Source of the DNA: a bacterium
GTDB taxonomy: Bacteria > Patescibacteriota > Minisyncoccia > UBA6257 > 02-FULL-45-10c
Length of the DNA: 64,000 nt
Direction: 5' to 3'
NCBI GenBank assembly: GCA_021786945.1
Contig: JAJYMK010000003.1
Location: 151,299 to 215,298 of the forward strand
The position numbers were made by a program, and so were the translations under genes. Under the pieces are notes generated by a model. It worked only from the letters and a program-made list of their open reading frames with translations, was not told where the DNA came from and did not search any database. This document shows, one piece after another, positions 2,156 through 58,689 of the stretch; position 1 is the first letter of the stretch, and every line of letters begins with the position of its first letter.

Positions 2156-4264
2156 ATGGCCACATCACAACATTATCCATTAGAAAAAACAAGAAATTTC
2201 GGAGTCGTTGCCCACATCGATGCGGGTAAAACAACTACATCCGAAAGAATTCTTTTCTATACTGGTGTTTCCCACAAAATAGGTGAAGTGCACAAAGGAG
2301 AAGCTGTCATGGACTGGATGGATCAGGAAAGAGAAAGAGGTATTACAATTACTTCCGCCGCTACAACTTGTTTCTGGGTTCCTAGCTATAGGCACGGAGA
2401 TAAAAATTTTGAACACAGATTTAACGTTATTGATACCCCGGGACACATCGACTTTACTATTGAGGTTAAAAGATCTCTGCGTGTTTTGGACGGCGCCGTT
2501 GTTGTATTTGACGGTGTATCCGGTGTGGAACCGCAGTCCGAAACCAACTGGAGATATGCGGATGAATATAATGTACCGAGAATTTGTTTTATAAATAAAA
2601 TGGACCGATTGGGTGCCAGTTTTGAAAATAGCTTTAAATCAATCAGGGAAAGATTGAATCCAAATGCGGTTGCCCTTCAGCTTCCTATAGGATCTGAAAG
2701 TGCTTTCCAGGGCGTAGTTGATTTGCTCAGAATGAAAGCCTATACATTTGAAGGCGATAAGGGTGAAAATATTATTGAATCGGAAATTCCGGAAAATATG
2801 AAAGAAGCCGCCGCTACATGGAGGCATGAGCTTATCGAAAAAATTGTCGAAAATGACGACAAAATGATGTCCGATTATTTGGAAGGAAAAGAGCCTTCTT
2901 TAGAAGATTTGAAAAGAGTTTTGAGAAAGGCTACATTGGCCGTGAAATTAATCCCGGTTTTTACCGGTTCTTCACTGAAAAATAAAGGCGTGCAATTAAT
3001 GCTTGATGCGGTAGTTGATTATTTGCCGTCTCCATTGGATCTGCCTCCAACAAAAGGTATTGATCCAAAAACCGGCAATGAAATTCAAAGGCCTGCTTCG
3101 GATGATCAGCCGCTTACCGCTTTAGCCTTTAAGATAGCCGCAGATCCTTTTGTAGGTAGTTTGACATTCTTCAGGGTTTACGCCGGTGTTTTGAAAAAAG
3201 GAAGTTATATTTTAAATTCAACAAAAGATGTAAAAGAAAGAGTCGGCCGTATCGTTCGAATGCACGCCAATCATCGTGAAGAAGTTGATGAAATTTTTGC
3301 CGGTAATTTGGGTGCTATTGTTGGTTTGAAAGATACTACGACCGGAGATACTCTTTGCGACGAAGCCAGCCCGATTATTTTGGAAAAGATTTCAGTTCCG
3401 GAACCGGTTATTTCCATGAAGATCGAGCCGAAAACAAAAGCTGACCAGGAAAAAATGGGCGTTGCTTTGAGAAGGCTTTCCGAAGAAGATCCGACCTTCC
3501 GCGTTAGCGGCGATGCCGAAACAGGAGATACTATTATTGAAGGTATGGGTGAATTACACTTGGATGTATTGGTGGAAAGAATGAAGAGAGAATTCGGAGT
3601 TCAGACAAATGTCGGCAGGCCGCAGGTTGCCTATAAGGAAACTATCAAGAAAGATGCCGATGCTGAAGGTAAATATATCAAGCAGTCCGGAGGTAAGGGA
3701 CAGTACGGTCATTGCCGAATTAAGATTGAACCGACCGAAAAAGGAAAAGGATTTGAATTTGTTAACGATATTAAAGGAGGTGCAATTCCGAAAGAATTTA
3801 TCGCTCCTATTGAAAAGGGTGTTGTGGAAGCTATGTCTAAAGGTGTGGTTGCCGGATTCCCGATGGTAGATATAAAGGTGACTTTGTACGATGGATCATA
3901 CCACGATGTAGACTCTTCCGAAGCCGCTTTCAAAATTGCAGGATCTATGGCTTTCAAATCTGCAGCGTTGAATGCGAAACCAATTCTTCTCGAACCTATT
4001 ATGAAAGTGCAGTCTTTGGCTCCGACTGAATACATGGGTGATATAACTGGAGATTTCAATTCCAAGAGAGGTAAGATTGAGGCTATGAGCGACAGGATGA
4101 ACATAAAAGTTATTGATGCCTTGATCCCGCTTTCCGAAATGTTCGGATATGCAACCAAATTACGTTCTATGACTCAAGGCCGAGGAAACTTCACGATGGA
4201 ATTTTCTCACTACGATGAAGTTCCTGCGAACGTAGCTACTCTTATTAAAGAGGGTAAGAAATAA
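2156..4264 (+). CDS. fusA: Elongation factor G
   Basis: The G-domain motifs AHIDAGKTT and DTPGHIDF are present, and the length is 702 aa. It sits in the str-operon position. Confidence 0.97.
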
Positions 4265-15641: not shown

Positions 15642-15645
15642 TTTA

Positions 15646-15676
15646 TTAAAACCCCGCTAAGCGGGGTTTTTTGTTA
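15646..15676 (+). terminator. Rho-independent terminator after secY
   Basis: AAAACCCCGCtaaGCGGGGTTTTTTG. Confidence 0.7.
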
Positions 15677-15828
15677 TAATAAATAAAGAGATTGCAAATT
15701 CCGCGCACAACAAAGATAACAAAATTTGTATATGTGCGGTAAATATTAATAAGTCGTTTTAAATTAATAATTAATAAAAAAAACAAAGAACGAGAAAGTT
15801 TTAGTTTCAAGTCTTTGTTATTTGTAGA

Positions 15829-16508: not shown

Positions 16509-17267
16509 GTGCTTATTAAAACTCCAGAACAAATAAAAAAGATTAAAATTTCCGGAAAGATATTGGCTAGTGTGGCAAAAGAACTTAAGAAAAATATTGC
16601 GGAGGGCGTTGTTTTGAAGGATTTGGATATATTGGCCAGGAAATTGATTGAAGAGGCTGGTGCCGAACCGGCATTTTTGGGCTATCAGCCGCACGGAGCG
16701 GATCATCCATTTCCGGCCTCAATTTGCGCTTCTTTAAATGAGGTTGTGGTTCACGGTATTCCCAATAAATACAAACTTAAATCCGGAGATATTTTGAAGC
16801 TCGACTTTGGGGTGAGCTACCAAGGCTTTATAACAGATTCAGCTTTTACTATTGGAGTTGGGAAGATTTCCGGTGAAGCTCAAAAATTAATGGATGTTAC
16901 CAAACATTCTTTGATGCTTGGTATAAAAGAGTGCCGCGCCGGAAAAACATTGGGGGATATTGGCTGGGCAATAAATAATTATGTTCAAAAAAATGGATTC
17001 AAGGTTGTGAAGGGTCTTTGCGGCCATGGGGTGGGCATAGAACTTCACGAAGAGCCATCAGTATTTAATGAGGGTCAGAAAAATACCGGTTTAGAGCTTA
17101 GGCCGGGAATGGTACTGGCCTTGGAACCAATGGTCTCGGCGGGGGATCCGTATATAGTTCAGACTGAACAGGAAAGTTATGCTACAAGAGATGGCAGTCT
17201 TTCCGCACATTTTGAACACACAGTGCTTATTACCGAGAGAAATCCCGAGATATTGACAAATTTTTAA
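16509..17267 (+). CDS. map: Methionine aminopeptidase type I (GTG start)
   Basis: Pita-bread fold motifs: ...VHGIPN..., DFGVSYQGFITD, and metal ligands in GHGVGIELHEEP. Confidence 0.92.
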   Translation: MLIKTPEQIKKIKISGKILASVAKELKKNIAEGVVLKDLDILARKLIEEAGAEPAFLGYQPHGADHPFPASICASLNEVVVHGIPNKYKLKSGDILKLDFGVSYQGFITDSAFTIGVGKISGEAQKLMDVTKHSLMLGIKECRAGKTLGDIGWAINNYVQKNGFKVVKGLCGHGVGIELHEEPSVFNEGQKNTGLELRPGMVLALEPMVSAGDPYIVQTEQESYATRDGSLSAHFEHTVLITERNPEILTNF

Positions 17268-17281
17268 AAAAGACGTATTAT
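17253..17281 (+). promoter_or_regulatory. Near-consensus sigma70 promoter overlapping the 3' end of map
   Basis: TTGACA at 17253-17258, 17-nt spacer, TATTAT at 17276-17281. Confidence 0.55.
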
Positions 17282-17287
17282 TTATTT

Positions 17288-17465
17288 CAGAACGTTTTAG
17301 AGCGACTGCTATCATAGCTTAAGGGCACTCCTACGGCGGCAGGGGTTTTCACCTCCGTGGTTCTCCTGACCGAAACCACAACCCTTAAATTCCGGGAATT
17401 ATCCGTAGGCAATACGGAATAGTCGCTCCAATATTTACTCCCTGGCAACAACAGGGAGTTTTTAT
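17288..17465 (+). ncRNA. Candidate structured small RNA of about 175 nt (unclassified), with its own promoter and terminator
   Basis: A GC-rich, ORF-free segment in an AT-rich genome. AGCGACU at 17301-17307 pairs with AGUCGCU at 17421-17427 as a closing stem. Internal hairpins: GCUAucaUAGC, UUAAGGG...CCCUUAA, AAUUCcggGAAUU and CCGUAggcaaUACGG. It ends in the terminator ACTCCCTGgcaacaaCAGGGAGTTTTT (17438-17465). Confidence 0.5.
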
Positions 17466-17504
17466 TCCAAAAAACAATAAAATTTGATATAATTTTAACG
17501 ATAT

Positions 17505-18254
17505 ATGCCAAAACCTTTTTTATCCGTAATTATTCCGGCTTATAATGAAGCAAAGCGATTACCGCTTACTTTAATCGATATCGATAAACATTTGGATGAG
17601 CAGGAATATTCTTATGAAATTATTGTAGTAAACGATGGATCTACCGACGATACCGCCGAAATTGTTACAAGATTCTTGCCTTTAATAAATAATTTAAGAC
17701 TGATAGATAATAAAGAAAATAAAGGTAAGGGCGCGGTTGTTCGTCAGGGAATGCTGGAATCCAAGGGATTATGGCGTCTATTTATGGATGCCGATAATTC
17801 TACTTCCGTAGTGGAATTCAATAAAATGATTTCTTATTTCAAATCCGGATACGACGTGGTAATTGGTTCGCGTGACGTAAGGGGCGCCAGGATGATGCCC
17901 CCCCAACCTATTCATAAAAGATTTATGGGTAGATTAGGTAATCTTATTATCCAGTTGTTTTTGACTCCGGGTATTTGGGATACACAATGTGGTTTTAAGT
18001 GTTTTTCCGAGGAAGCAGCTGAGAGAGTTTTTTCTCTAACTAGGATAGATAAGTGGGGTTTTGATGCGGAGGCATTGGCTTTAGCCAAAGTTTTGGGATA
18101 TAAAATAAAAGAAATTCCGGTATTTTGGGTAAATGATATAAGAACTCACGTGAAACTTAAGGATTATTTGCAAGTATTATTTGAAACTGTTAAAGTACGT
18201 TGGTGGTTGTTACGCGATGTATATAATATTAAAAATCAAAATAAAAATTTTTAA
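17505..18254 (+). CDS. GT2 glycosyltransferase (dolichyl/polyprenyl-phosphate mannose or glucose synthase-like)
   Basis: ...SVIIPAYNEAKRL...IIVVNDGSTDDTAEI...MDADNS (DXD), typical of DPM1/GtrB-like GT2 enzymes. Confidence 0.75.
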   Translation: MPKPFLSVIIPAYNEAKRLPLTLIDIDKHLDEQEYSYEIIVVNDGSTDDTAEIVTRFLPLINNLRLIDNKENKGKGAVVRQGMLESKGLWRLFMDADNSTSVVEFNKMISYFKSGYDVVIGSRDVRGARMMPPQPIHKRFMGRLGNLIIQLFLTPGIWDTQCGFKCFSEEAAERVFSLTRIDKWGFDAEALALAKVLGYKIKEIPVFWVNDIRTHVKLKDYLQVLFETVKVRWWLLRDVYNIKNQNKNF

Positions 18255-40546: not shown

Positions 40547-40903
40547 AAGTATTGGCACTAATAAGCCGGATTCTGTTTCGTTTAAAAACGGACAACAATT
40601 TATCTGGGCCGTTAATTACTTAACGGCTCTAGCGGCACATCCCTTGCGGGATACGGCCTTGCACTTGGGTAAGGATTTAGCCGTTTCACCCCAGCTTTTT
40701 TGTCTCTATAGCTGGATTAGACCAATTAGCTTGAGATTAGGTCTGCCCGATCTTTTCAAAACGGGCCGTCACTGCTCGCACCTCTATATTACTATCGATG
40801 GGTGTTACCCACTACCCCGCTCTTTGTTGCAAGCAACAAAGAAGTGTCCGGACTTTCCTCTCCGGTTAAAAACCGAAGCTGTTGTTTAAGGTACCAATAC
40901 TTT
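40545..40903 (-). ncRNA. rnpB: RNase P RNA, bacterial type A
   Basis: The minus strand contains the P4 5' strand GAGGAAAGUCCGGACAC, GGGUAACACCC, ...GCCCAGAUAAAUUGUUGUCCG...ACAGAAUCCGGCUUAUUAG, and a P1 helix (AAGUAUUGGUAC pairing with GUGCCAAUACUU). Each has a clear counterpart in E. coli M1 RNA. Confidence 0.9.
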
Positions 40904-58615: not shown

Positions 58616-58686
58616 TGCCGGGTCGTCTAACGGTAGGACATCGCCCTTTGGAGGCGAGTATCGGGGTTCGAGTCCCTGCCCGGCAG
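58616..58686 (+). tRNA. tRNA-Gln (anticodon UUG)
   Basis: Cloverleaf: acceptor TGCCGGG pairs with CCCGGCA. D-arm GTCT...GGAC. Anticodon stem TCGCC/GGCGA with loop cTTTGGa (anticodon TTG). T-arm CGGGG-TTCGAGT-CCCTG. Discriminator G, no encoded CCA. An extended -10 (TGTGATAAT) lies about 30 nt upstream. Confidence 0.85.
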
Positions 58687-58689
58687 CTC

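Follow-up and report, generated by a model that had tools for sequence, protein, structure and literature searches.

We analysed a stretch of 64,000 nucleotides (nt), hereafter the window, from a bacterium of the Patescibacteria (GTDB lineage Patescibacteriota; Minisyncoccia; UBA6257; 02-FULL-45-10c), corresponding to positions 151,299 to 215,298 of contig JAJYMK010000003.1 in the GenBank assembly GCA_021786945.1, and focused on a structured RNA segment that lies between map and a gene for a GT2 glycosyltransferase. The gene order in the window is secY, adk and map, then the RNA segment, followed by GT2, greA, lysS and serS. The stop codon of map occupies 17265-17267, the RNA core begins 33 nt further on, and the ATG of GT2 is at 17505. 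The map-GT2 spacer has no called gene, and the open reading frames (ORFs) that can be read in it (74 and 30 amino acids on the minus strand, 21 amino acids on the plus strand) are spurious. The GC content is 0.49-0.54 across 17300-17449, as compared with 0.25-0.37 in the flanks. An earlier note, made from the letters of this DNA, had described the segment as ORF-free and locally GC-rich, and both descriptions were confirmed. The same note had remarked that the usual alpha-operon genes are not here. This also holds, as the downstream genes encode GT2, GreA, LysRS and SerRS, and no alpha-operon gene was found among ten further window ORFs scanned with Pfam. However, the idea that the RNA replaces the alpha operon was not borne out: the order map, GT2 (about 243 amino acids), greA is standard in the clade with or without the RNA, and the missing alpha operon is thus a feature of the clade.

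The element occurs in one further lineage, whose Map protein is 93% identical to that of the window and which is represented by three loci, L027 (NCBI GCA_029558295.1), L028 (JGI) and L029 (ENA). In all of them the RNA lies at exactly the same site as in the window. The features of the segment are collected in Table 1. The predicted promoter overlaps the map stop codon, with its -35 box TTGACA in the last map codons (Ile-Leu-Thr), and transcription is predicted to start at about 17288-17290. At the homologous position L029 has TTGACA-17-TATTTT, in which the spacer length is identical and the spacer sequence is diverged; CGTATT.T at the -10 position and a spacer of exactly 17 nt have been kept despite saturated divergence between the window and L029. 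At the place matching the window terminator, L029 has a hairpin followed by U6, and the terminator stems of the two versions are heavily diverged. The predicted transcripts are about 175 nt long in the window and about 160 nt in the homologue. The segment thus has its own promoter and its own intrinsic terminator, both of them consensus-level sequence signals and both kept in the homologue. The near-consensus promoter and the strong intrinsic terminator noticed earlier were borne out in this way, and the independently transcribed structured RNA that had been proposed from them is the most likely explanation, given that the promoter geometry and the terminator are retained across saturated divergence.

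Table 1. Features of the RNA segment and of its flanking signals in the window. For some features the sequence of L029 is given for comparison.
Feature	Position	Strand	Description
Sigma-70-type promoter	17253-17281	+	TTGACA (17253-58), 17-nt spacer, TATTAT (17276-81); 11/12 matches in the promoter scan
5' leader	17289-17299	+	AGAACGUUUUA; 11 nt, counted from the predicted start; AGRACSUUUUA kept in the homologue (alignment)
P1 5' strand	17300-17307	+	GAGCGACU; pairs with 17421-17428
P2 hairpin	17308-17318	+	GCUA-UCA-UAGC; three pairs invariant, fourth pair in the window only
P3 5' strand	17319-17325	+	UUAAGGG; pairs with 17382-17388; 7/7 pairs in all sequences
Joining segment	17326-17329	+	CACU; AACU in L029; 3/4 identical
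P4 5' strand	17330-17336	+	CCUACGG; pairs with 17403-17409 and crosses P3; 7/7 pairs in all sequences
P5 hairpin	17337-17372	+	Base CGGC... conserved; distal part variable (36 nt, as against 16 nt in L029)
Joining segment	17373-17381	+	AAACCACAA; AAAUUUUA in L029
P3 3' strand	17382-17388	+	CCCUUAA
Conserved 14-nt loop	17389-17402	+	AUUCCGGGAAUUAU; consensus AUYCYGGGAAKUAY; 10/14 identical; spans P3 in the pseudoknot model
P4 3' strand	17403-17409	+	CCGUAGG; misassigned to the GGCAA hairpin by the single-sequence fold
Conserved joining segment	17410-17420	+	CAAUACGGAAU; 8/11 identical
P1 3' strand	17421-17428	+	AGUCGCUC; pairs with 17300-17307
Intrinsic terminator	17437-17464	+	8-bp stem (ACUCCCUG...CAGGGAGU, 17437-17459), 7-nt loop, U5 tract
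GT2 promoter (outside the RNA)	17485-17493	+	Extended -10 TGATATAAT (TGnTATAAT), between the terminator and the GT2 ATG

The comparison of the two versions indicates that the RNA fold is under selection. Of the 4-fold degenerate sites of map (n=97), only 37% are identical in the window and L029, so that these sites are essentially saturated. In the RNA core, 79 of 120 positions are identical (66%; binomial p about 2e-10 against 0.37), and the best block, which covers P2, the 5' strands of P3 and P4 and the base of P5, reaches 26 of 32 (81%). The conservation is a mosaic: about half of P1 is identical, no similarity is detectable in the tip of P5, and the joining strands CACU, AUYCYGGGAAKUAY and CMAUACRGGAU, where the conserved nucleotides cluster, are well kept. 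Because the P5 tip is unrelated and the terminator stems are diverged, a recent transfer is argued against as the source of the similarity. Such mosaic conservation above the neutral level, together with the compensatory changes described below, points to an RNA that two lineages have retained under purifying selection. Protein-coding constraint was not seen: beyond the lack of a called gene, the one short frame that is open in both versions (window 17357-17422, 21 amino acids) has 8 of 10 substitutions non-synonymous on inspection of the alignment. We rejected a small peptide encoded by this frame for that reason and because its start lies in the non-conserved tip of P5. The tip also contains UCACCUCC (window 17349-17356), which is identical to the anti-Shine-Dalgarno end of 16S rRNA. 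This string was rejected as a conserved feature, since it belongs to the window-specific tip and is missing from the homologue.

The plus strand of the segment folds at -60.1 kcal/mol (z = -4.3), which is far more stable than the shuffles; none of 200 dinucleotide shuffles folded as well. The minus strand folds similarly (z = -4.1), so that the strand had to be assigned from the promoter, the terminator and the G-U pairs rather than from fold energy; the G-U pairs of P5 fit the plus strand only. The minimum free energy (MFE) fold of the single sequence consists of four local hairpins, and these are the internal hairpins that had been described before; the comparative data give a pseudoknot instead. 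The hairpin with the GNRA-like GGCAA loop (17403-17417), which was among them, is impossible in L029, the sole homologue, and its 5' arm covaries with 17330-17336, the 5' strand of P4. In L029 the strands of P4 are CCGCAAG and CUUGCGG, which pair perfectly again through two compensatory double changes (C-G to U-A and A-U to G-C), and those of P3 are UUGAGGG and CCCUCAA, with one compensatory change (A-U to G-C). Thus, P3 and P4 together are paired at 14 of 14 positions in every sequence, with three compensatory double changes and zero disruptive ones. When P2 is included, 96% of the pairs form on the alignment of the window and the homologue, with three compensatory pairs, and the pairing falls to 22-57% when the partner strands are slid by 1-3 columns. 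P3 and P4 interleave as an H-type pseudoknot, which is completed by the 4-nt first loop CACU, the P5 hairpin and the 14-nt third loop; we infer that the two helices form simultaneously. The closing stem seen earlier also exists, at 17300-17428, and is 8 base pairs (bp) long rather than 7. In L029 it reads AGGACUG/CAGUCCU, where the GACU/AGUC core is kept and the outer pairs have changed and are still paired.

The distribution of the RNA was followed through 16 species representatives obtained from GTDB by way of the Map protein (labelled Patescibacteria, Paceibacterota or Harrisonbacteria) and through the contigs of eleven further Map variants obtained by a protein homologue search. Absence was judged at the syntenic site, and the two carrier lineages are a lower bound within this Map-anchored sample. 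At the loci of the 16 representatives, blastn and nhmmer found no copy; the closest of these relatives (Map 93-96% identical) have a spacer of 33-40 bp that holds only the TGnTATAAT promoter of GT2. Among the eleven further variants, one lineage carries the RNA and ten do not, namely L018 (Map 97% identical), L019/20 (96%), L025/26 (97%), L021-24 and L155 (94%), L153 (93%), L030/31 (92%), L032 (91%) and L154 (81%). In all, about 25 related lineages are free of the RNA, including those with Map 96-97% identical, and their spacers are short (33-96 bp). A covariance model built from the two versions recovered only four loci (the window and L027-L029) in the window and 34 related loci, and by this search the RNA is missing from all other relatives. 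In a neighbour-joining tree, a weak one based on the Map protein only, the two carrier lineages do not come out as sisters. The sister of the window, L025 (Map 97%), has TAAAAG-TATATTTA and a terminator resembling that of L029, which amounts to a clean deletion of the RNA, and the deletion lies between short TATTTA-like repeats. The simplest history is that the RNA is ancestral to the sub-clade and was lost several times. Being deleted in sister lineages, the RNA is dispensable and accessory. A possible remnant in L003, at which a MAFFT alignment hinted, gave zero matches to the covariance model at E<=10 and is treated as unproven.

The map-GT2 spacer itself is variable among the relatives and may hold unrelated long hairpins, a small membrane ORF or a second adk. 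Rod-like hairpins of 150-220 nt, each followed by a T-run, lie directly after the map stop in L008 (3255-3480), L009 (3250-3440) and L011 (3250-3400); they were rejected as homologues of the RNA because they are unrelated in sequence, and they have no Rfam match either. In L011, a part of this hairpin is found again at positions 1470-1532, suggesting a palindromic element that is repeated. L029 (1133-1216), L027 and L028 have a long near-perfect palindromic hairpin (TAGTTAGCCACTAG...CTAGTGGCTAGTTG) that separates the GT2 promoter from the GT2 start codon; a similar hairpin is found in L032 (2020-2100), and no counterpart exists in the window. A small conserved ORF between map and GT2 (L006:3330-3488, L011:3472-3614 and L015 at about 3297-3440) resembles a membrane peptide with the motif ...NFYFAYK.ND.W..FH... 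and is missing in the window. In L023 (2315-2992) and L024 (991-1668), both with Map 94% identical, a second adenylate kinase gene is located between map and GT2, and the usual adk is still upstream.

Further upstream, the secY-adk spacer of the window (15642-15828, 187 bp) contains a terminator-like hairpin (AAAACCCCGCTAAGCGGGGTTTTTT), directly followed by TGTTATAAT and then by a leader of about 130 nt before adk. In view of these contents, the ribosomal-protein cluster is probably interrupted already after secY. The same spacer in L027 is only about 85 bp long. On the other side of the RNA, only about 11 nt separate the end of the GT2 -10 box from the ATG, and no Shine-Dalgarno sequence is found there (window 17485-17507). 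The arrangement is the same in the relatives L018, L002 and L016, and with the -10 box so close to the ATG the GT2 mRNA would be nearly leaderless.

To identify the RNA, we searched for known families and for further copies. At the gathering score, Rfam 15 matched only RNase P RNA and one tRNA in the whole window. The former is a class A RNase P RNA at 40548-40897 on the minus strand, which scored 104.6 bits against a gathering threshold of 100 and departs from the model by large deletions and insertions, as is to be expected in a genome of the Patescibacteria; the latter is tRNA-Gln (anticodon UUG) at 58616-58687 on the plus strand, the sole tRNA of the 64 kb. At E<=10, Rfam 15 had zero matches both in the window region 17200-17520 and in positions 900-1230 of the homologue L029, and Rfam searches of 16 related loci and of L008, L009 and L011 returned nothing relevant. 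Thus, an assignment to 6S RNA, signal recognition particle (SRP) RNA, transfer-messenger RNA or any curated riboswitch or ribozyme class is not supported. Second copies were found neither by blastn or nhmmer in the window and the related loci, nor by the covariance model in the window and 34 related loci or in 100 viral loci. Scans of a viral collection gave no real match: a relaxed pattern hit 120 irrelevant sites, and a block-A pattern had two chance matches, in both of which the covariance model found no copy of the RNA. The phage and plasmid collections had no blastn match. Scans of a metagenome collection gave 0 matches; one of them used a pattern verified on all known copies, and since even L028, a JGI contig, was missed by it, the collection evidently lacks such short contigs. 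A literature search on such an RNA found nothing relevant.

We propose that the segment is an independently transcribed, lineage-restricted, structured small non-coding RNA gene and a transcription unit of its own, and we put the probability of this reading at roughly 0.55. RNA polymerase would start from the promoter whose -35 box lies in the last map codons and would stop at the intrinsic terminator near 17464. The 129-nt core (17300-17428), closed by P1, would hold P2, the variable P5 and the interleaved P3 and P4 as an H-type pseudoknot. From the sequence signals we infer that the RNA is transcribed independently; it would probably act in trans. Its architecture suggests a putative partner-binding role, in which the RNA may act through a folded pocket or surface and bind a protein or a small ligand; such a layout would be unlike that of a small RNA (sRNA) acting through a linear antisense seed.

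Several points weigh against this proposal. The element is represented by only two independent sequences (the window and L027/L028/L029), so that all of the covariation is one phylogenetic contrast, and the column-shuffle control is weak, as 21 of 500 shuffles equalled the model of P2, P3 and P4. In addition, RNAalifold picks a rod, in which GCUURAGGG pairs with YCCGYARGC and CCC with GGG. This rod is the MFE fold of L029, at -40.9 kcal/mol versus about -25 kcal/mol for either nested half of the pseudoknot, and in the window sequence the two models are roughly equal in energy. On the alignment, the rod model counts one compensatory pair, as against three one-sided changes and two broken pairs; shuffles did as well in 168 of 500 cases. 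In the rod, CYURCGG has no partner, yet both substitutions in this strand are matched exactly by those in the strand that it pairs with in P4. Because of this match we regard P4 as real and consider the rod a possible second conformer; both conformers use the strand 17403-09 and exclude each other. As for the transcription signals, independent transcription rests on predicted ones, and the -35 hexamer is constrained by the C-terminus of Map (Ile-Leu-Thr) and is present also in relatives without the RNA. Finally, the repeated loss of the RNA fits a nearly neutral or selfish element too.

Other readings of the segment have to be weighed against a small RNA gene. It could be a terminator-type riboswitch or attenuator, in which the core would sense a ligand or factor and set the read-through of 17437-17464 into GT2-greA-lysS-serS. 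The P1-closed pseudoknotted core, the conserved junctions, a terminator that follows 8-9 nt later and the shared strand with the operon would suit such a switch, and the RNA could be bistable, since P4 and the 'a-b'' helix share 17403-17409 and exclude each other. On the other hand, the terminator is separated from GT2 by the conserved TGnTATAAT, the element is missing from more than 25 related GT2 operons, the best partners of the 5' arm of the terminator in RNAduplex are at non-homologous positions so that no antiterminator is conserved, and no known aptamer class was matched by Rfam 15 at E<=10. One might suppose that the downstream promoter supplies the basal expression of GT2; we regard both this supplement and the attenuator itself as unlikely. 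Because GT2 has its own promoter and most GT2 operons lack the element, a cis-regulatory role in general is unlikely, and the suggestion of a cis-leader of GT2 was not upheld, given the promoter past the terminator and the missing antiterminator. Unlikely, too, is a reading in which the segment is a 3' untranslated element of the map (spc-cluster) transcript, a read-through structure that serves as stabiliser, processing site or insulator, with a fortuitous promoter. The element does begin only 33 nt past the map stop, the -35 hexamer is coding sequence kept for protein reasons, and the unrelated long hairpins at the same spot in L008, L009 and L011 show that the spacer tolerates and accumulates structured inserts. 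However, such a reading does not account for a -10 element and 17-nt spacing retained across saturated divergence, and a mere hairpin would do for a stabiliser, with no need of conserved junctions in single strands or of a pair of interleaved helices that covary.

The variability of the spacer also raises the question of a non-functional or selfish insert, that is, a remnant or cargo of a small mobile element resembling a miniature inverted-repeat transposable element (MITE). The spacer is a hot spot of insertions and deletions, the distribution of the RNA is patchy with carrier lineages that are not sisters in the Map tree, and TATTTA-like short repeats flank the segment (17279-84 and 17432-37), with the L025 deletion at these repeats. 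What makes such an insert improbable is that no second copy was found in the 64-kb window, the 34 related loci or the viral, phage and plasmid collections, that the 8-bp inverted repeat (P1) is internal and not terminal, and that the mosaic conservation is far above neutral and accompanied by compensatory changes. A MITE proper was rejected, as the inverted repeat is internal, the copy is single and no clear target duplication exists beyond the AT-rich TATTTA. Very improbable is a divergent housekeeping RNA (6S or SRP), which the earlier note had listed among the possible identities. The transcript of about 175 nt is near the length of 6S RNA and a rod-like alternative fold exists, but the proposed cmscan was run and neither version of the element has an Rfam match even at E<=10, a large central bubble is missing in the rod, the sole GNRA-like hairpin is not conserved, and close relatives, including sisters with Map 96-97% identical, lack the element at the locus.

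Beyond a small RNA gene of its own lineage, the segment might tentatively be seen as the founding member of a new class, a compact, pseudoknotted and possibly bistable RNA in Paceibacteria-type Patescibacteria that would be a sensing switch for a ligand or protein or else a small ribozyme, although we consider this improbable at present. The junction strands CACU, AUYCYGGGAAKUAY and CMAUACRGGAU would then form the active pocket, and the two exclusive pairings of the strand 17403-17409 would act as the switch. Patescibacteria (Candidate Phyla Radiation, CPR) have very small genomes and are hard to culture, and to our knowledge almost no regulatory RNAs have been described in them beyond the universal ones. 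An RNA that is selected and yet deleted in sister lineages points to an accessory function that can be acquired or lost. Should the family and the pseudoknot hold up in a wider search, a defined RNA of 110-130 nt would be at hand for biochemical testing; as a case built on two sequences, it is a modest lead and falls short of a discovery.

Among known systems, 6S RNA (RF00013) resembles the window RNA in transcript length, independent transcription and high structure content. 6S RNA is a long rod whose large central bubble mimics an open promoter. The window RNA has no match to the covariance model of 6S RNA, its conserved pairs make up a P1-closed core with interleaved P3 and P4, and the alternative rod lacks a central bubble and terminates in a multiloop with two hairpins. 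Unlike a housekeeping gene, it is also missing at the syntenic site where Map is 91-97% identical. The covariance models of SRP RNA (RF00169 and RF01854) do not match it either, and in contrast to the conserved helix-8 hairpin of SRP RNA, with its GNRA tetraloop and characteristic internal loops, the GGCAA hairpin of the window has no counterpart in L029.

The fold is closer in outline to ribozymes related to that of hepatitis delta virus (HDV). HDV-like ribozymes are nested double pseudoknots with the strand order P1 5', P2 5', P3 hairpin, P1 3', P4 and P2 3', and the window RNA has the corresponding order P3 5', P4 5', P5 hairpin, P3 3', loop and P4 3', with both interleaved helices about 7 bp long and the hairpin directly adjoining the second helix. 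In the HDV catalytic core, the pair at the cleavage site is G-U, P3 has 3 bp and a C-rich loop L3 that makes up P1.1, and J4/2 carries a conserved C. The window RNA does not share this core: its first pair is U-A rather than G-U, P5 has at least 5 bp and a variable loop instead of 3 bp and a conserved C-containing loop, 8-9 nt separate the P5 hairpin from the 3' strand of P3, and the nucleotides before the 3' strand of P4 (AAUUAU in the window, AAGUAC in L029) include no conserved C three to four nt upstream. In addition, the fold of the window RNA is enclosed by the extra helices P1 and P2.

Riboswitches of the SAM-II and preQ1-II/III type have H-type pseudoknot aptamers and a terminator as expression platform. 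They share with the window RNA the interleaved helices, the conserved joining strands, the closing helix and the adjacent intrinsic terminator. The window RNA differs from them in that it has no Rfam aptamer match and no conserved antiterminator, in that GT2 has a promoter after the terminator, and in that the element is not tied to GT2 in the relatives. As for trans-encoded sRNAs, most of those that act by base pairing have an unstructured seed and simple hairpins, whereas the window RNA has a P1-closed pseudoknotted core with conserved junctions. In its genetic layout the window RNA is like them, with a compact promoter, a non-coding RNA of about 160-175 nt and a terminator placed with its own signals between protein genes, and like them it is lineage-restricted and easily lost.

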